Positions 1-7,674 of a DNA stretch of 7,674 nucleotides are shown one piece after another. The position numbers were made by a program, and so were the translations under genes. Origin of the DNA: a virus (taxonomy: Duplodnaviria; Heunggongvirae; Uroviricota; Caudoviricetes); IMG/VR virus record IMGVR_UViG_2703719355_000017. One strand, given 5' to 3'. Positions within the stretch are counted from its first letter, which is position 1. Every line of letters starts with the position of its first letter. Under the pieces are notes generated by a model. It was not told where the DNA came from. It saw only the letters and a program-made list of their open reading frames with translations, and did no database searches.

Positions 1-426
1 TCAATGCACAGCCACAATATTTCCTGCAGGGCCACCACGATTCATCTGGTTGAAACCAGCGATCGCCACTGCGACAAAATCATCAGCGTCTCTCACCAGT
101 CGTTCCCGCGTCTCCACTAGTTCCCGAAAATAGGCTGAGCTATGGCTGCGCATTCGGGCCACCAGCAGAGGTGGCATTGCTTTTTCGATAGCTGGTAACA
201 ACGCCTGAATTTTTTTAACCGCATCAGGGGTGTCTTTCTCCACCCAGCGGAAAATTTTCTGAGTATTGCGTGCCAGGGCTTCCGGATGGCTGTCGTCATA
301 CAGTTCAGGAAACGTCATACCCAACTCAAAATAAGCCTGGGTTATTCCAGCTGCTGGAACTTTTTCGCCATCAGGACGCGCCCAGGCATTCATCGCCATG
401 CGGATGTGTTCATGCTTGATTTTCAT
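1..426 (-). CDS. ydaT: YdaT-family prophage protein, 141 aa (proposed CII-like regulator)
   Basis: Complete ORF with ATG at 426..424 and TGA at 3..1. Its start overlaps the stop of the upstream HTH gene (ATGA), suggesting translational coupling. Size and position after a YdaS-like gene match the Rac-type ydaS-ydaT pair; N-terminus MKIKHEHI. Family assignment is from memory, not a search. Confidence 0.65.
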   Translation of the reverse strand: MKIKHEHIRMAMNAWARPDGEKVPAAGITQAYFELGMTFPELYDDSHPEALARNTQKIFRWVEKDTPDAVKKIQALLPAIEKAMPPLLVARMRSHSSAYFRELVETRERLVRDADDFVAVAIAGFNQMNRGGPAGNIVAVH

Positions 427-725
427 GAATCAACTCCATCAGATAAGCATGCACTACAATCACCTTCAGCATGAACTACATGTGTTTGCCCCAAACGAAT
501 GCCGCTCGCATACTCAGGCCAAATAAGCTCCCAATCATGGGGTCGTAGCTCCGCCCTACTTACTTGGCCTTCCGTCGCAGATTCGATCATAAGGGCGCGG
601 GTTGGAGATATAGCTGCTCGTCCAGACGCCATTTGCGATAAGTAAGATGGCGATACACCAAGTCTGGCCGCGAATTTCTTAGCATCACCAACCCTCAATG
701 ATTTAATAAACTCTTTTAATGTCAT
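423..725 (-). CDS. ydaS: Cro-like YdaS-family HTH DNA-binding protein, 100 aa
   Basis: ATG at 725..723 with SD GAGG (734..731) 5 nt upstream on the minus strand. HTH-like segment AKKFAARLGVSPSYLSQMASGRAAISPTRALMIESATEG. Divergent from the repressor-like gene. Confidence 0.75.
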   Translation of the reverse strand: MTLKEFIKSLRVGDAKKFAARLGVSPSYLSQMASGRAAISPTRALMIESATEGQVSRAELRPHDWELIWPEYASGIRLGQTHVVHAEGDCSACLSDGVDS

Positions 726-729
726 ACCT

Positions 730-822
730 TCCTCGGTTTAGTGTTTTTTTGCGAGTTTAGTGTTTAATAAACCGTTAAGTCAAGTATTTGCTTGTTTAGT
801 GATTACTAAAGATAATTACCAC
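730..822. promoter_or_regulatory. Divergent back-to-back promoter/operator region (PR/PRM-like)
   Basis: Minus strand: -35 TTGACT (783..778), 18-nt spacer, -10 TAAACT (759..754). Plus strand: -35 TTGCTT (788-793), 17-nt spacer, -10 GATAAT (811-816), placing the start site at or next to the ATG at 823 (leaderless). GTTTAGTG occurs three times (736-743, 755-762, 794-801), plus near-palindrome GTTTAATAAAC (762-772). Confidence 0.5.
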
Positions 823-1194
823 ATGCAAAAAAAAGAAATTCGCCGTTTACGTCTCAAGGAGTGGTTTAAAGATAAAACTCTGCCACCCAAAGAGAAGAGC
901 TACCTATCTCAACTAATGAGTGGGAGGGCCTCGTTTGGAGAAAAGGCTGCCAGAAGAATAGAGCAAACATACGGGATGCCGGAAGGGTATCTGGATGCGG
1001 AATACGCAGAACAACCGGAAGTTTCTCCACCACATGCAGGGTTAACGTCTAATCAACTGGAATTATTGCAGATTTTTTCAGCCTTCCCTGAGGATGAGCA
1101 ACGCCAGATAATCAGCGAGTTAAAGCAGAAAAAAGAATCAATGGAAGATCTCATAGCGAGATGGATTGCGGCGCAAAAATGCCGCCGCGCCTGA
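823..1194 (+). CDS. paaR2: CI-like HTH repressor, 123 aa; regulator of the three-component TA module (PaaR2-like)
   Basis: ORF 760..1194, but the ATG at 760 lies inside the operator/promoter. ATG at 823 sits just downstream of the GATAAT -10 and has no SD, consistent with a leaderless mRNA. HTH-like segment EKSYLSQLMSGRASFGEKAARRIEQTYGMPEGYLD. Followed 20 nt later by the antitoxin gene. Confidence 0.7.
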   Translation: MQKKEIRRLRLKEWFKDKTLPPKEKSYLSQLMSGRASFGEKAARRIEQTYGMPEGYLDAEYAEQPEVSPPHAGLTSNQLELLQIFSAFPEDEQRQIISELKQKKESMEDLIARWIAAQKCRRA

Positions 1195-2651: not shown

Positions 2652-3026
2652 ATGGAATTTAAAGATTTACCAATGCAATTCCAGGAAATGGCAGCGAATA
2701 TAGTTCGTTCCCAACTGGCGACTCTTGACCTGAGTACCGTAGAAAAAGAAACCATCGATACTATATCCAGTAACGTGCGTCGTGCCTTTATCGGTCTGTA
2801 CGAAGAGAAGCAGCTCTCTGATAACCAGGATTTACATGAAAAATACTTCCTGGATCTAATGGACATCATTAATAAGGGATTTGGCTTGTTAATGAAACAG
2901 AAAGGGATTCGAATGAACCCCCTTGAAAATTACTTCGCAACAAGAAGCATTAATTCCTGTGATTTAAAGCATCCCGCCACAGACGGGAGTGTTACAGCTA
3001 GCCATGAGATTTCGATTAATCATTAA
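2652..3026 (+). CDS. Hypothetical protein, 124 aa
   Basis: SD GAGG (2642-2645) 6 nt before ATG 2652. Starts 22 nt after the previous gene, suggesting an operon. Lower GC than flanking genes by eye. No family recognised. Confidence 0.7.
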   Translation: MEFKDLPMQFQEMAANIVRSQLATLDLSTVEKETIDTISSNVRRAFIGLYEEKQLSDNQDLHEKYFLDLMDIINKGFGLLMKQKGIRMNPLENYFATRSINSCDLKHPATDGSVTASHEISINH

Positions 3027-3114
3027 AATCAATAGCTATTTCAATAAGTGATGCCATCTCGTTGCGTTTTGTTGAATTCATCTTACGTAATACTTCATGT
3101 TGATTAGCACCTTT

Positions 3115-3155
3115 GGCGGCATCAGTTTAATTGCTGGCTGATGTCCGCCCTTTTT
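3115..3155 (+). terminator. Putative rho-independent terminator
   Basis: GC-rich stem GGCGGCATCAG (3115-3125) pairs with CTGATGTCCGCC (3138-3149) with one bulge; 12-nt loop; followed by TTTTT (3151-3155). Lies about 90 nt after the 124-aa gene. Confidence 0.5.
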
Positions 3156-3159
3156 AAAG

Positions 3160-3178
3160 TGAATTTTGTGATGCGGTG
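3160..3178. repeat. Left arm of a 19-bp perfect inverted repeat
   Basis: TGAATTTTGTGATGCGGTG (3160-3178) is the exact reverse complement of 3303-3321. Arms are separated by 124 bp. Confidence 0.9.
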
Positions 3179-3302
3179 AATGCGGCTCAGCGCACGCGGA
3201 ACAGTTAAAAAGGCCAGTTGACTTCCGTATTGGTTCTTATGGGTGGGTTCTCTGTATCCGGCGTTAATTGTTAACTGGTTAACGTCACCTGGAGGCACCA
3301 GG

Positions 3303-3321
3303 CACCGCATCACAAAATTCA
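3303..3321. repeat. Right arm of a 19-bp perfect inverted repeat
   Basis: CACCGCATCACAAAATTCA (3303-3321), reverse complement of 3160-3178. Confidence 0.9.
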
Positions 3322-3338
3322 TTGTTGAGGACGCGATA

Positions 3339-3527
3339 ATGGAAACGTTATTACCAAACGTTAATACGTCTGAAGGTTGCTTTGAAATTGGTGTCAAAAT
3401 CAGTAACCCTGTATTTACTGAAGATGCCATTAATAAGAGAAAACACGAACGGGAGCTATTAAATCAAATATGCATTGTTTCAATGCTGGCCCGTTTACGT
3501 CTGATGCAAAAAGGATACTGGCAATGA
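3339..3527 (+). CDS. Hypothetical small protein, 62 aa
   Basis: ATG 3339 with GAGGA (3327-3331) 7 nt upstream. The longer track ORF from 3243 would start inside the inverted-repeat region and is rejected. Stop TGA 3525-3527 overlaps the next start. Confidence 0.55.
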   Translation: METLLPNVNTSEGCFEIGVKISNPVFTEDAINKRKHERELLNQICIVSMLARLRLMQKGYWQ

Positions 3528-3715
3528 ATACATCATTTGCACTCGTTCTGACGGTTTTTCTTAATACGGGCGAGCCGCTTGACCTTATTGTTGACATACG
3601 TGACTCAATGGAAGAATGCATGGCTGCCGCAGCGGAACAGAAAATTCCCGGTAACTGTTATCCGGTTGATAAAGTTATTCGCATGGATAATAACGAAGTC
3701 CCGGCAGGGCTTTAA
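3524..3715 (+). CDS. Hypothetical small protein, 63 aa, with a short N-terminal hydrophobic segment
   Basis: ATG 3524 overlaps the preceding stop (ATGA), suggesting translational coupling. Product MNTSFALVLTVFLNTGEPLDL... The track ORF start at 3470 is upstream of the coupled ATG. Confidence 0.55.
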   Translation: MNTSFALVLTVFLNTGEPLDLIVDIRDSMEECMAAAAEQKIPGNCYPVDKVIRMDNNEVPAGL

Positions 3716-3805
3716 ACCAGTACCGTAATAAATATCCGGTTTCATTTTTATATGCCTGCAATGGCAGGGATTTGTTCACCCTAAAAATAGTTACGAGGTT
3801 TATCA

Positions 3806-6256
3806 ATGAGCGCTGATAAAGAAGAAATTGCACTATATTACGAAGCCAAAAATGACAAAGTCAGAAAACGCCTTGGGATTAAAGGCGGTTTTTACTGGCG
3901 CACAGCAAAAAAATTATCGATTGCAATATCACGCGGTGTTGTCGCAATGGACGATGCCGGATTTGACGAAGAGGATTTTAAAAAACCTGTTCGCGTCCAT
4001 TTACCCGTTGTGAATGACCTTCCTCCGGAAGGCGTGTTTGATACCGAATTCTGCAACCGATACGAAAAAGGCGGGGAAGATGGTATCACAATGGTACTTA
4101 TCGCGCCCTCTGTTCAGGATAAACCAGCCAGCACTGACAATACCAACGTCAACGGTGAAGACATGACTGAGATTGAGGAGAATATGCTCCTGCCAGTTTC
4201 AGGTCAGATTCTGCCTGTTCGATGGCTGGCGCAACACAACAGCGAAAAACCGATCACGCACGTTTCGCAGGACGAACTGCGCGCATTACATAACGCACAG
4301 GATGAAAAACTTCCCGCCGTTACCGCGCTGGCCATCTCAAATAAAGCAGCGCAACTCGAACCACTGGAAATTCGCGATCTCCACAAACTGGTACGCGACA
4401 CTGACAAAGTTTTCCCTAATCCTGGTAATTCAGACCTGGGACTGATGACCGCTTTTTTCGAAGCATACCTGGGCGCTGACTACACCGATCGCGGTCTGCT
4501 TACAAAAGAGTGGATGAAAGGAAATCGTGTTTCACGCATCACCCGCACGGCTTCCGGTGCTAATGCCGGTGGAGGGAACAAAACCGATCGCAATCCGAAT
4601 TTAGTACACACCTTTGATACGCTGGATGTGGAGATTGCAGCGGCCACACTTCCGATGGATTTTAATATTTATGAAATTCCGGGCAGCGTTTATCGTCGCG
4701 CAAAAGAAGTCGTCCGGAAGAAAGAAAGTCCGTTCAAAGAATGGTCCGCAGCACTTCGCGCAATCCCGGGTATCCTGGATTATTCCCGCGCCGCTATTTT
4801 TGCACTTATCCGGAGCGCACACCCTGAGTTTTATCATTACCCGGGACGCCTTCAGGGGTATATCAACGCCTATTTAACGGAGACTGATCACGAGAACCCT
4901 ACCGAGGAAACTCTCGCTGCTGCACGACATACACCGGAAAAAGATATCCTGGAAGAAGTTAACCGCGAACTGGCTGCTGAACACGAAACAGAAGAAGAAA
5001 AAAATAATGAGGAAAAATCACAACCGTCTGACGCAATGGCAGATGAACAGGCAACGGCTGAAGAAATGGAGCCGGATACAACTGAACATCACCAGGACAC
5101 GCAATCGCTGGATACTCAGGAACAGGTAGATCCAGTTAAACAGGTAAAAGTTACCGCTGACGAAGTAAACAAAATTATGCAGGCAGCCAATATCAGCCAG
5201 CCTGACGCCGATAAGTTACTTGCTGTATCACGTGGTGAATTTGTTGAGGGGATTAGCGCCCCTAATGATCCGAAATGGGTCAAGGGGATCCAGACTCGCG
5301 ATTCTGTGAACCAGAACCAGCATGAATCGGAACGGAACTACCAAAAAGCGGAACAAAACAGCCCAAATGCGTTACAAAACGAGCCAGAAACGAAACAACC
5401 TGAACCAGTAGTGCAACAGGAACCGGAAAAGATCTGCACCGCCTGCGGTCAGAGCGGTGGCGGCAACTGCCCTGATTGTGGTGCGGTGATGGGTGACGCA
5501 ACATACCAGGAAATATTCGATGGAGAGAATCAGCCTGAAGTTCAGGAAAATGATCCGGAGGAAATGGAAGGCACTGCGCATCAGCACAAGGAGAACACTG
5601 GCGGCAATCAGCATCATGCCAGCGATAGTGAAACTGGCGAGGCGTCAGATCCCTTAATTAAGGCGAACGGTCATCATAATCTCACATCCACCAGCAGAGC
5701 GGGGATTCATCTGATGATCGACCTTGAAACCATGGGAAAAAATCCCGATGCCCCGATTATCTCAATAGGTGCAATATTTTTCGATCCGCAAACCGGAGAT
5801 ATGGGACCGGAATTTAGTAAGACTATCGATCTGGAAACTGCTGGCGGAGTCATTGATCGGGACACCATTAAATGGTGGCTTAAACAATCACGCGAAGCGC
5901 AATCTGCCATTATGGCCGATGAAATCCCGTTAGATGATGCACTGTTACAATTGCGGGAATTTATCGACGAAAACTCCGGTGAATTTTTTGTTCATGTCTG
6001 GGGAAATGGAGCCAACTTCGACAACGTAATTTTACGCCGTTCATATGAACGACAGGGCATCCCCTGCCCGTGGCGCTACTGCAACGATCGCGATGTACGC
6101 ACAATTGTTGAACTGGGAAATTCCATTGGCTTTGATGTCAGAATGACTATTCCATTCGAAGGTGTACCTCACAATGCACTCGATGATGCACGTCACCAGG
6201 CAAAACAAGTTTCAGCTATCTGGCAAAAACTGATCCCGAGTCAGGCTGATTTTTAA
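3806..6256 (+). CDS. Large prophage exonuclease-like protein, 816 aa: N-terminal region of unknown function, acidic low-complexity linker, C4 zinc-ribbon motif, C-terminal DEDDh (DnaQ/RNase T-like) 3'-5' exonuclease domain
   Basis: SD GAGG (3795-3798) 7 nt before ATG 3806. DEDDh motifs read directly: Exo I MIDLETMG (D639, E641; nt 5720-5728), Exo II HVWGNGANFDN (D739; nt 6020-6022), Exo III HNALDD (H789, D794; nt 6170-6187). C-x2-C-x7-C-x2-C at residues 544-558 (nt 5435-5479). Acidic E/D/Q/T-rich region at about residues 360-630. Confidence 0.85.
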   Translation: MSADKEEIALYYEAKNDKVRKRLGIKGGFYWRTAKKLSIAISRGVVAMDDAGFDEEDFKKPVRVHLPVVNDLPPEGVFDTEFCNRYEKGGEDGITMVLIAPSVQDKPASTDNTNVNGEDMTEIEENMLLPVSGQILPVRWLAQHNSEKPITHVSQDELRALHNAQDEKLPAVTALAISNKAAQLEPLEIRDLHKLVRDTDKVFPNPGNSDLGLMTAFFEAYLGADYTDRGLLTKEWMKGNRVSRITRTASGANAGGGNKTDRNPNLVHTFDTLDVEIAAATLPMDFNIYEIPGSVYRRAKEVVRKKESPFKEWSAALRAIPGILDYSRAAIFALIRSAHPEFYHYPGRLQGYINAYLTETDHENPTEETLAAARHTPEKDILEEVNRELAAEHETEEEKNNEEKSQPSDAMADEQATAEEMEPDTTEHHQDTQSLDTQEQVDPVKQVKVTADEVNKIMQAANISQPDADKLLAVSRGEFVEGISAPNDPKWVKGIQTRDSVNQNQHESERNYQKAEQNSPNALQNEPETKQPEPVVQQEPEKICTACGQSGGGNCPDCGAVMGDATYQEIFDGENQPEVQENDPEEMEGTAHQHKENTGGNQHHASDSETGEASDPLIKANGHHNLTSTSRAGIHLMIDLETMGKNPDAPIISIGAIFFDPQTGDMGPEFSKTIDLETAGGVIDRDTIKWWLKQSREAQSAIMADEIPLDDALLQLREFIDENSGEFFVHVWGNGANFDNVILRRSYERQGIPCPWRYCNDRDVRTIVELGNSIGFDVRMTIPFEGVPHNALDDARHQAKQVSAIWQKLIPSQADF

Positions 6257-6267
6257 TGTTCAACCGT

Positions 6268-6299
6268 CGCCAGTTGTAGTTGGTATTCTGCAACTGGCG
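6268..6299 (+). other. Perfect 9-bp stem / 14-nt loop hairpin between the exonuclease and xis genes
   Basis: CGCCAGTTG (6268-6276) and CAACTGGCG (6291-6299) are exact reverse complements. No downstream T-run, so not a classical terminator. Lies just upstream of the xis SD GGAG (6305-6308). Confidence 0.4.
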
Positions 6300-6317
6300 C
6301 GTTCCGGAGTGATAACC

Positions 6318-6587
6318 ATGAGCGAACAGTACCTGATAACGCTCGATGAGTGGAAACCCAAACGGTTCAGTCTCCCAATAACAAACACTACCCTGGTGAA
6401 ATACGGAAAACTTGGATACATCGTACCAAGACCACAAAAAATTCGTGGACGTTGGCTGATAGATCGCCGGGCAGTATTTGTTGGACCTGGTGAAACGGGA
6501 ATTGCGCCGGAAATTCATACTGGCGATGATGATGCACTGAAGGAGATTTTAACTCATGTCACCGAGGCCACGAAAAAACAGCACTGA
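6318..6587 (+). CDS. xis: Excisionase (lambda Xis-like), 89 aa
   Basis: ATG 6318 with GGAG 8 nt upstream; the track start at 6309 is a GTG in the same frame. Segment YLITLDEWKPKRFSLPITNTTLVKYGKLGYIVPRPQKIRGRWLIDRRAVFV resembles lambda Xis as recalled. 3' end overlaps the int start by 32 nt, as in lambda. Confidence 0.75.
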   Translation: MSEQYLITLDEWKPKRFSLPITNTTLVKYGKLGYIVPRPQKIRGRWLIDRRAVFVGPGETGIAPEIHTGDDDALKEILTHVTEATKKQH

Positions 6588-7674
6588 CGTAGCCGGTCTT
6601 TACGAAAAGTTTGATCGCAGAACTGGCAGAGTTTACTACCAGTATAAAAACCCTGTGACTGGAAAATTTCACGGACTCGGAACAGACAAAGGCAAAGCTG
6701 AAAGAATCGCTTCCACAGCCAATCAGCGAATAGCTGCAGCAGAAGCCGAATATTTCATGCGCAAAATTGATGAAAGCCCGTCAGCAACAAAACGTCGGGG
6801 TATCAGATTAAAGGCATGGGTTGATCGATATCTGAAAATACAGGACGCGCGGCTGAAAAATGGAGATATTGCAGCTACAACCCACAAAGAAAAAGCGCGA
6901 ATGGCTGCATACCTGGTTTCCCGTCTGGGAAACCACCCATTGAAAGAACTGGAAGTAAGAGACTTTGCATTAATACTGGATGAGTGGCTGGATAAAGACA
7001 TGGTCAGCACAGCGAGAGTAAATCGTGGATTATGGGTTGATATTTATAAAGAAGCACAGCATGCAGGGGAAGTTCCTCCTGGATGGAATCCTCCGGAGGC
7101 TACCCGTAAACCGATCCCTAAAGTAACCAGAGCCAGGCTCACCATGGAAGACTGGCAAAAAATTTACAATGCAACGCCTGAAAAACACTTTATCCGTAAC
7201 GCAATGCTTCTTGCGATTGTTACTGGTCAGCGCCGTGATGACATTTGCCACATGCGTTTTTCAGATGTGTGGAACGAACACTTGCATATCACCCAGGGAA
7301 AAACCGGAATGCGTCTGGCGTTACCGCTTACACTACGCTGTGATGCCATTGGGATAACGTTAAAAGAAGTTATTGATGGGTGCCGAGACAGAATATTAAG
7401 TCCATATCTAATCCATAGTCGGCACCAGAAACAACCGAAGCCGATGAGTAAAGACAACCTGAGCGACTACTTTGCCAAAGCACGGGATCTGGCTGGGATA
7501 ATTCCACCAGCAGGAAAAACTCCGCCAACATTTCATGAACAACGCTCTCTATCAGAACGGCTGTACCGTGCACAGGGTATCGATACAAAAACATTACTAG
7601 GACATAAAGTCCAGGCAACCACCGATCGCTATAACGATACTCGAGGTCAGGAATGGGTTAAGTTGGTTATTTGA
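6556..7674 (+). CDS. int: Tyrosine site-specific integrase, lambda Int family, 372 aa
   Basis: ATG 6556 with SD AGGAG (6541-6545). Basic N-terminal arm-type domain (YYQYKNPVTGKFHGLGTDKGKAERIA). Catalytic-domain motifs VTGQRRDD, QGKTG, PPTFHEQRSLSERLY, LLGHK, and TTDRY with the presumed catalytic Tyr359 (nt 7630-7632). Strongly resembles lambda Int as recalled. Stop TGA at 7672-7674 is the window end. Confidence 0.93.
   Translation: MSPRPRKNSTDVAGLYEKFDRRTGRVYYQYKNPVTGKFHGLGTDKGKAERIASTANQRIAAAEAEYFMRKIDESPSATKRRGIRLKAWVDRYLKIQDARLKNGDIAATTHKEKARMAAYLVSRLGNHPLKELEVRDFALILDEWLDKDMVSTARVNRGLWVDIYKEAQHAGEVPPGWNPPEATRKPIPKVTRARLTMEDWQKIYNATPEKHFIRNAMLLAIVTGQRRDDICHMRFSDVWNEHLHITQGKTGMRLALPLTLRCDAIGITLKEVIDGCRDRILSPYLIHSRHQKQPKPMSKDNLSDYFAKARDLAGIIPPAGKTPPTFHEQRSLSERLYRAQGIDTKTLLGHKVQATTDRYNDTRGQEWVKLVI

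Follow-up and report, generated by a model that had tools for sequence, protein, structure and literature searches.

The exonuclease RecE of the Rac prophage in Escherichia coli K-12 has its nuclease domain at residues 564-866, behind an N-terminal domain described as being of unknown function and dispensable in basic recombineering (PMC11611040). Phage T4 DexA, for which Kang et al. (2025, PMC12153337) solved the structure, represents another fold, the DEDDh exonucleases. Here we analyze a gene for a protein of 816 amino acids (aa) that has likenesses to both. The gene lies on a 7,674-nucleotide (nt) stretch of viral DNA (IMG/VR record IMGVR_UViG_2703719355_000017; the whole stretch is called the window below). 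We conclude from homology that the N-terminal region of the protein corresponds to the RecE N-terminal extension, and that the PD-(D/E)XK 5'-3' head of RecE has been exchanged for a predicted DEDDh head of the DexA/Rv2179c type.

Other described systems are also relevant to this locus. According to Kang et al. (2025), a plasmid-borne E. coli homologue of DexA, EcD, digests T4 DNA and not unmodified double-stranded DNA, and EcD on a plasmid protects cells against T4 (PMC12153337). The specificity was attributed to the equivalents of DexA W152 and D169 together with loss of the tetramer contact D90 (PMC12153337). DnaQ-like 3'-5' nucleases are reported in lambdoid Rec modules, e.g., that of epsilon34 (Zheng et al. 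2025, PMC12315714). These nucleases are likewise 3'-5' DEDD enzymes of lambdoid early-left operons, with sporadic copies near int, as here; the text available describes no fusion to a RecE N-module. The Rec-module copies covered there adjoin genes for annealases or single-stranded DNA-binding proteins (SSB), whereas the 816-aa gene does not. Mycobacterium tuberculosis Rv2179c is the founding member of PF16473, the Pfam family to which the DEDDh head belongs. It is a small stand-alone bacterial protein, likened to the head by Pfam family alone. Abendroth et al. are said to have described Rv2179c in 2014 as an exoribonuclease, and the Pfam description agrees.

Domain architecture of the 816-aa protein

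The open reading frame (ORF) list of the window contains an ATG-initiated frame at 3806..6256 (+) that codes for 816 aa. The window is the start of the E. coli draft-genome contig CYGN01000006.1 (GCA_001286505.1), where the gene call has identical coordinates. The exact protein has already been deposited (P0001), under the name "Exodeoxyribonuclease VIII from bacteriophage origin". The features of the gene and its product are listed below, with their support in brackets.

3806..6256, + strand, stop codon included: complete gene, predicted fusion of a RecE N-module and a DEDDh exonuclease (ORF list, deposited protein, contig gene call)
3795..3798, + strand: Shine-Dalgarno sequence GAGG, 7 nt before the ATG (direct sequence reading)
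3806..4105, + strand: N-terminal alpha/beta unit, residues 1-100, with the start of the Exonuc_VIII match (AlphaFold2 block with a predicted local distance difference test score, pLDDT, of 73-88; PF06630)
3977..5659, + strand: homology to RecE 50-591, residues 58-618 (BLASTP, 55% identity; PRK09709)
4184..4915, + strand: two helical units, residues ~127-370, where the scaffold is best conserved (AlphaFold2; ratio of nonsynonymous to synonymous substitution rates, dN/dS, ~0.13; 198 homologues)
4916..5215, + strand: first acidic linker, residues 371-470, with a net charge of -19 (composition; pLDDT low where it begins; dN/dS of 0.36-0.38 in comparisons with close relatives from E. coli and phages)
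5426..5491, + strand: zinc ribbon, shared with RecE (sequence; RecE alignment; weak DZR match)
5492..5695, + strand: acidic linker 2, residues 563-630, net charge -13 (composition; RecE homology stops inside it, at residue 618)
5708..6223, + strand: predicted DEDDh 3'-5' exonuclease domain, DexA/Rv2179c-like, residues 635-806 (PF16473, 8KEL match, alignments, dN/dS)

By BLASTP, the homology to Rac RecE of K-12 ends at RecE residue 591 and nothing aligns beyond it. The NCBIfam RecE equivalog PRK09709 matches residues 1-619 at model positions 1-603 of 877, and its score of 899.5 bits is under the equivalog cut-off of 1269 because the last third of the model is unmatched. PF06630 (Exonuc_VIII) matches residues 56-187 (E 7.8e-26). 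The zinc ribbon has the form CxxC-x7-CxxC (C544, C547, C555 and C558) and is conserved in the RecE alignment, although the Pfam DZR match at this site is weak (E 0.13). Two strongly acidic linkers complete the recognizable features of the N-terminal ~630 residues; no fold relative of the N-module was recognized. Because the homology stops near the start of the RecE nuclease domain, we regard the protein as a RecE scaffold with a replaced head. The likeness to Rac RecE thus covers ~560 N-terminal residues, including the zinc ribbon and acidic linkers, and extends to gene position, late in an early-left operon near xis and int. The differences are that the PD-(D/E)XK domain (RecE 564-866) is missing, with a DEDDh domain of predicted opposite polarity in its place, and that no recT follows the gene.

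The head itself, residues 635-806, matches PF16473 (Rv2179c-like 3'-5' exoribonuclease domain) over profile positions 2-177 of 177 (E 4.9e-66), scoring 222 bits against a cut-off of 27, with generic RNase_T as a weak second Pfam match. By sequence, T4 DexA (PDB 8KEL/8KEN) is the closest protein of solved structure, and no other solved relatives were found in this way; identity to DexA is 24-33%, varying with the alignment. Residues D639, E641, D739, H789 and D794 align with DexA D7, E9, D119, H186 and D191, and this D-E-D-H-D pentad does not vary between genera when ten diverse family members are aligned with DexA. The DexA paper gives the catalytic motif as D7, E12, D119, D191 and H186 (PMC12153337, Figure 5 legend), where "E12" is evidently E9 because residue 12 of DexA is Gly. 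AlphaFold2 gave a pLDDT of 35 for residues 530-816 because the shallow alignment used contained near-identical sequences only; the DEDD fold of the head is instead predicted through homology to the solved 8KEL. DexA and the 816-aa protein thus share a predicted fold family and all five catalytic residues. They differ in that DexA is a 227-aa stand-alone protein with extra loops from a virulent phage, while here the domain is the C-terminal head of a temperate-phage protein. We conclude that the catalytic domain is most probably a DEDDh 3'-5' exonuclease and not of the lambda-Exo/RecE fold, its polarity and substrate being predicted by homology.

An earlier, sequence-only reading of this DNA had identified the same 816-aa frame, which is present exactly as claimed. 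It had also assigned a C-terminal DnaQ/RNase T-like DEDDh domain, which the profile search bears out, and had named the five catalytic residues, each of which stands at its given position and aligns with the DexA pentad. Its view that the fold is not of the lambda-Exo/RecE type agrees with the RecE alignment ending at 591 and with nuclease tblastn searches that returned noise. The reading had described the ~630 N-terminal residues as free of any identifiable catalytic motif; this needs correction in that PF06630, the zinc ribbon and the acidic linkers are all recognizable there. Whether this region resembles the RecE extension had been left to a search, and the 55% identity to RecE 50-591 answers that it does.

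Relatives of the N-terminal module and of the DEDDh head

The N-module (residues 51-380) was searched against 1.84 billion cluster representatives, and only 198 were related at E <=0.001. The heads of the 88 relatives of at least 450 aa were classified at phmmer sensitivity, as follows.

N-module with a RecE-type nuclease head: 24 of 88 representatives
N-module with a DEDDh head: 14 of 88 representatives
N-module with neither nuclease head at phmmer sensitivity: 50 of 88 representatives

Pfam results for 48 of the 50 proteins with neither head comprised a RecT domain in two, a weak PDDEXK match in one, and no recognizable tail domain in 45. These 45 probably correspond to "RecE-2", the name given to RecE relatives without a nuclease domain by Zheng et al. 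(PMC12315714). Such head-less RecE-family proteins (~600-650 aa, PF06630 only) have the N-module in common with the 816-aa protein but no recognizable catalytic head, whereas the 816-aa protein has an intact predicted DEDDh head. In three proteins, P0123 (703 aa), P0315 and P0362, the N-module is joined directly to RecT with no nuclease between (PF06630 + PF03837). Such proteins may have arisen by deletion between neighbouring recE and recT genes or may be true fusions; because they are rare and might be deletion products, we give them little weight.

A broader idea is that the RecE N-terminal region is a general delivery platform. Temperate phages would equip it with interchangeable heads: a nuclease of either polarity (5'-3' or 3'-5'), an annealase, or no head at all. 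The version with a DEDDh head, which is the commonest in E. coli, would then define an annealase-independent pathway for DNA 3' ends in which host recombination or replication proteins are co-opted via the N-module. We offer this tentatively and consider it rather unlikely as a whole.

A profile search with the DEDDh domain, taking one genome per species, gave 80 loci, from Enterobacterales, Aeromonas and Aliivibrio among others. Of these, 26 have the domain joined to the N-module (641-828 aa) and 53 have it as a stand-alone protein (182-235 aa). Around the fused genes (126 neighbouring ORFs, 26 species), the families found were integrase (24), Rrf2-like proteins (16), excisionase and repressor-type helix-turn-helix (HTH) proteins. 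Among the neighbours of the stand-alone genes (144 ORFs, 50 species) were SSB (8), AAA_24/Sak4-like (6), ERF (3) and Rad52-like (2) genes. The SSB gene is directly upstream of the stand-alone gene in seven species, and the Sak4-like gene is mostly one gene further up; the Sak4-SSB arrangement is the recombination module of HK620-type phages (PMC5928155).

The Rrf2-like protein (~115-125 aa, Pfam iron-dependent transcriptional regulator) was seen at L091-L098, L111, L117 and other fused loci outside Escherichia. It appears to be encoded directly upstream of the fused exonuclease gene in these loci, in the place that the DUF1482 gene has in E. coli.

Abundance and selection

DNA of the DEDDh head (window 5681-6256) was found in 4072 of 5426 complete E. 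coli genomes, at 8065 places and with up to 7 per genome. DNA of the K-12 recE nuclease head was found in 1736 of the 5426, at 1827 places. The shares are therefore 75% for the DEDDh head versus 32% for the recE nuclease head. All of the best 120 database relatives have the PF06630 + PF16473 architecture, the ORF is intact across hundreds of protein clusters, and a single 92%-identical cluster, named "MULTISPECIES: exonuclease [Enterobacteriaceae]", occurs on at least 1000 contigs. Many database entries name the protein 3'-5' exoribonuclease. The protein and its domain architecture are already catalogued, as deposited sequences, PGAP names, PHROGs 607 and 2082, and a Pfam architecture. Isolated phages with the gene include vB_EcoS-813R8 (ON470619), Evi (LR597642), Tritos, PPompW and Stx2a-converting phages, and a prophage of ATCC 25922 has it as well.

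Against relatives of ~92% identity, dN/dS was 0.13 in the N-module, 0.17-0.26 in the head and 0.36-0.70 in the linkers. The low values in the N-module and head indicate that both folded modules are maintained by purifying selection. A second major allele, which starts MSKVFICAAIPD…, is found in E. albertii and E. ruysiae, with products of 811-823 aa. This allele (L087, L089 and L090) shares the linker, zinc ribbon and DEDDh half with the 816-aa protein, with head identities of 89-90% (L087 and L089) and 71% (L090), while its first ~250 residues are essentially unrelated. Mosaicism therefore affects both ends of the gene. PHROG 2082 (823 aa) seems to belong to the second allele.

Copies 52-90% identical to the DEDDh domain were also present in assemblies labelled as Veillonella parvula (metagenome-assembled genome, MAG; L088), Geobacteraceae (MAG; L104), Actinomycetes (MAG; L125) and Chryseobacterium sp. 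(L152). L088 has dicB and DUF1482 upstream of its copy, and L104 has an integrase downstream. The copies in these non-enterobacterial assemblies are most likely contamination or mis-binning.

Comparison with EcD

An EcD-like protein was recovered by means of the forward primer given in the supplement of PMC12153337. It is 189 aa long and occurs on six viral contigs; its start matches the EcD forward primer, the 3' end of its gene equals the EcD reverse primer save one base, and the protein ends …TPFLNI. An exact search with the reverse primer gave no match, probably since the printed primer has one extra A. Residue A78 of the EcD-like protein aligns with DexA D90, as the paper gives for EcD. 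The EcD-like protein is 39.5% identical to the DEDDh domain of the window and has PF16473 and the catalytic pentad in common with it. The positions to which EcD specificity was attributed, including the proposed readers of 5-hydroxymethylcytosine (5hmC), compare as follows.

DexA W152 (proposed 5hmC reader): W132 in the EcD-like protein, C759 in the window protein
DexA D169 (proposed 5hmC reader): E145 in the EcD-like protein, N772 in the window protein
DexA D90 (tetramer contact): A78 in the EcD-like protein, D711 in the window protein

Across the fused family, the residues aligned with W152 vary, and none of those aligned with D169 is acidic. The PADLOC-DB v2 models matched the 816-aa protein with 0 families at E <=0.01. 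The EcD-like gene (L192:6404-6991, - strand; also in L171, L176, L186, L187 and L189) is located in the early operon of a P2-like prophage, in the order int, cox-like, DUF4761, exonuclease, Dam methylase, DUF4406, gpA. The prophage origin of EcD is not mentioned in PMC12153337. EcD/HREX is prophage-encoded like the 816-aa protein but stand-alone, and anti-T4 activity has been demonstrated for EcD only.

Genomic context and search for recombination partners

The genes flanking the 816-aa gene are listed below.

3339-3527, + strand: dicB, upstream operon partner (Pfam, gene calls)
3524-3715, + strand: DUF1482/ydfD-like gene, upstream operon partner (Pfam, gene calls)
3339..3715, + strand: the upstream pair of dicB and DUF1482/ydfD-like gene (order kept in most of 80 viral loci)
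6318-6587, + strand: xis, downstream (ORF list, gene calls)
6556-7674, + strand: integrase gene, downstream of xis (ORF list, gene calls)

The order dicB, DUF1482, exonuclease gene, xis, int is found in most of 80 viral loci with close relatives of the gene, every copy being at least 90% identical, and all 80 of these loci lack an annealase. No sigma-70-like promoter was found on the + strand across 3000-6700, and the 90-nt gap upstream of the gene contains a weak hairpin only. The attachment site has its potC side outside the window, past the integrase end (downstream block 6318..7674). We conclude that the 816-aa gene lies at the int-proximal end of an early-left operon of the dicB type, in a lambdoid prophage that has integrated next to potC. 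From this position, the operon is expected to be repressed in the lysogen.

Pfam searches of the ten other main ORFs in the window identified YdaT/YdaS-like proteins, a PaaA2/ParE pair, DicB and DUF1482, with nothing further relevant and no annealase. Six-frame tblastn of the window returned noise (best E ~0.2-0.3) for all queries, namely RecT of K-12, another RecT domain, the lambda proteins Bet, Exo and Gam, and the nuclease domain of RecE; RecE 592-866 gave a best E of 1.1. Matches of "RecT_P0123" inside the 816-aa gene were rejected as an artefact of linker residues in the query; the RecT domain alone gives none. The sequence-only reading had found no recT- or bet-like gene after the exonuclease gene, which holds in all six frames, overlooked ones included. 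It had placed xis 62 nt downstream, and the xis ATG at 6318 is indeed 62 nt past the last base of the stop codon. Its argument from the missing annealase stands in part: the absence speaks against a classical exonuclease-annealase pair, but not against DNA-end processing.

A lambdoid Rec module has contiguous annealase, SSB or anti-RecBCD genes, and the neighbours here are dicB, DUF1482, xis and int. In phage Evi, which carries the 816-aa gene, a RusA resolvase is the sole annotated recombination function. About 22% of lambdoid phages are without a Rec module according to Zheng et al. (2025, PMC12315714), and the window fits this class.

Several other elements were noted in the window. A DicF-like small RNA at 3104-3150 (+), between a gene for a 124-aa hypothetical protein and dicB, is placed as dicF is in the Qin prophage of K-12. 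It covers the whole Rfam model at 35.1 bits against a gathering score of 48 (E 4.6e-06) and sits ~650 nt upstream of the 816-aa gene, with which it shares a transcription unit. At its end is a hairpin (3118-3145) that resembles a terminator, with a run of T after it. The dicB leader and the start of dicB (3148-3371, +) match the gammaproteobacterial small RNA STnc100 below the Rfam threshold (34 bits against 47, E 7.9e-06). Nothing in the window reached Rfam gathering scores.

In the immunity region, a PaaA2-type antitoxin/ParE toxin pair (1215-1406 and 1408-1686, +) is located directly downstream of a repressor-like gene, and is labelled RelB/RelE-ParE in the closest E. coli relative. At 1-725 (-) and 760-1194 (+), YdaS-like HTH and YdaT-like genes are divergent from a gene for a 123-144-aa protein, which has no Pfam match and occupies the cI/dicA position. 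The immunity region is thus of the Rac/Qin type and not of the lambda type. The ydfE pseudogene of the K-12 Qin prophage was considered as a remnant of the 816-aa gene and rejected, as BLASTP gives no homology.

Proposed role and alternatives

We propose that the 816-aa protein is an early-operon 3'-5' exonuclease that processes DNA ends in early lytic growth together with host recombination and replication functions. Taken as a whole, we judge this statement about evenly balanced; our confidence in the architecture alone is much higher. Once the prophage is derepressed, the gene would be co-transcribed with dicB, xis and int. The head would remove nucleotides from free 3' ends of DNA by a two-metal DEDDh mechanism, and the N-module would bring it to the same target or partner as in RecE. 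While early lytic development is under way, the protein may in this way trim back 3' tails or flaps at the ends of phage or host DNA, relying on the recombination and replication functions of the host in place of a dedicated annealase. A DNA-end role is favoured because the N-module otherwise joins RecE-type nucleases or RecT, and because stand-alone heads adjoin SSB, Sak4-like, ERF or Rad52-like genes.

Several points weigh against this proposal. No annealase or SSB family occurs among the 126 neighbouring ORFs of the fused genes in 26 species. Zheng et al. explicitly do not count "sporadic" DnaQ-type genes "very near int" as Rec-module members, and state that 3'-5' exonucleases usually inhibit, and do not promote, homologous recombination (PMC12315714). 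That stand-alone copies accompany recombination genes may be due in part to a common place in the operon and not to function, and the Pfam family of the head is named for an exoribonuclease. The literature searched holds no biochemical or genetic data on the 816-aa protein or its fused relatives, for which polarity and substrate are predicted by homology.

Exclusion functions are found in prophage early-left operons, and dicB, a gene of the operon considered here, has been connected with resistance to phages. An HREX-type anti-phage defence or superinfection exclusion is one alternative, in which the protein, expressed from the prophage, degrades incoming and perhaps modified-base DNA from its 3' ends and spares the host. 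EcD, of the same Pfam family and 39.5% identical, does digest T4 DNA and protect against T4 (PMC12153337), but that evidence comes from plasmid expression. The specificity markers of HREX are absent from the window protein, which has C759 and N772 at the reader positions and retains the tetramer residue as D711, and the fused family at large has a variable W column and a D169 column that is never acidic. PADLOC gives no match, the gene is distal in an operon expected to be repressed in lysogens, and the P2-like early operon of the EcD-like gene suits phage DNA metabolism equally well. We consider defence unlikely, and the published mechanism not transferable to the 816-aa protein, because the 5hmC-reader and dimer residues differ, the EcD-like gene is in a prophage early operon, and there is no PADLOC match. 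The head could alternatively act as an RNA-directed 3'-5' exoribonuclease that trims or degrades RNAs at induction, e.g., a DicF precursor or host RNAs. The description of PF16473 as "3'-5' exoribonuclease Rv2179c-like domain", the many database entries of that name, and the DicF-like RNA ~650 nt upstream in the same transcription unit are consistent with this, but the sole solved relatives by sequence are structures of T4 DexA, a DNA exonuclease, the scaffold otherwise bears DNA nucleases and an annealase, stand-alone relatives adjoin SSB and annealase genes, and the DicF processing link is without any support; we regard an RNA substrate as very improbable. The suggestion of the sequence-only reading that the gene serves defence or exclusion, or host RNA processing, is thus unsupported as it was put: PADLOC is silent, the HREX positions are not conserved, the operon is expected to be repressed in the lysogen, and stand-alone relatives are in recombination modules.

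Counter-defence or anti-recombination is a further alternative, in which removal of 3' single-stranded tails blocks loading of host RecA or destroys immune nucleic acids with free 3' ends. The usual inhibition of homologous recombination by DnaQ-like 3'-5' exonucleases, as stated in PMC12315714, would agree with this, as would the presence of the gene in lambdoid phages without a Rec module of their own (Evi has RusA only). Set against it, the idea is purely inferential, the neighbourhood points to no particular defence system, and phages without a Rec module are reported to benefit from host RecBCD recombination (PMC12315714), which destruction of 3' tails would oppose. It seems to us quite unlikely. 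Cryptic prophages do gather rearranged genes, and 45 of the 48 scanned long N-module proteins lacking both nuclease heads show no recognizable head, so that the gene might be a non-functional leftover of an accidental fusion in a decaying prophage. The purifying selection on both modules, the invariance of the catalytic pentad across genera, the presence of the gene in isolated viable phages, and its occurrence, frequently more than once per genome, in 75% of the complete E. coli genomes make this extremely improbable. Of these readings, DNA-end processing in early lytic growth is the one we prefer.

Implications for the RecE and DexA families

We class the 816-aa protein as a mosaic RecE-family member. 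It is a variation on kinds already known and does not represent a new type of system. In the literature searched, no study describes the exchange of the RecE head for a DEDDh head or tests the 816-aa protein. Many records carry the name "exodeoxyribonuclease VIII" for the protein; recombination potential read from this name is wrong because the RecE nuclease is missing and the polarity should be opposite. Correcting this annotation matters, as the gene is more widespread than true recE in complete E. coli genomes.

The claim that E. coli homologues of DexA are bacterial defence proteins needs qualifying, because early genes of prophages encode both EcD and the 816-aa protein, and the proposed 5hmC-reader residues are missing from the commonest E. 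coli member. We advise caution in extending the HREX defence model to this commonest E. coli member of the family.

The RecE N-terminal domain is known to boost linear-linear recombineering, and the head swap described here amounts to a natural experiment on that domain. The presence of the same scaffold on nucleases of both predicted polarities and on an annealase suggests that the N-terminal domain is a targeting module.

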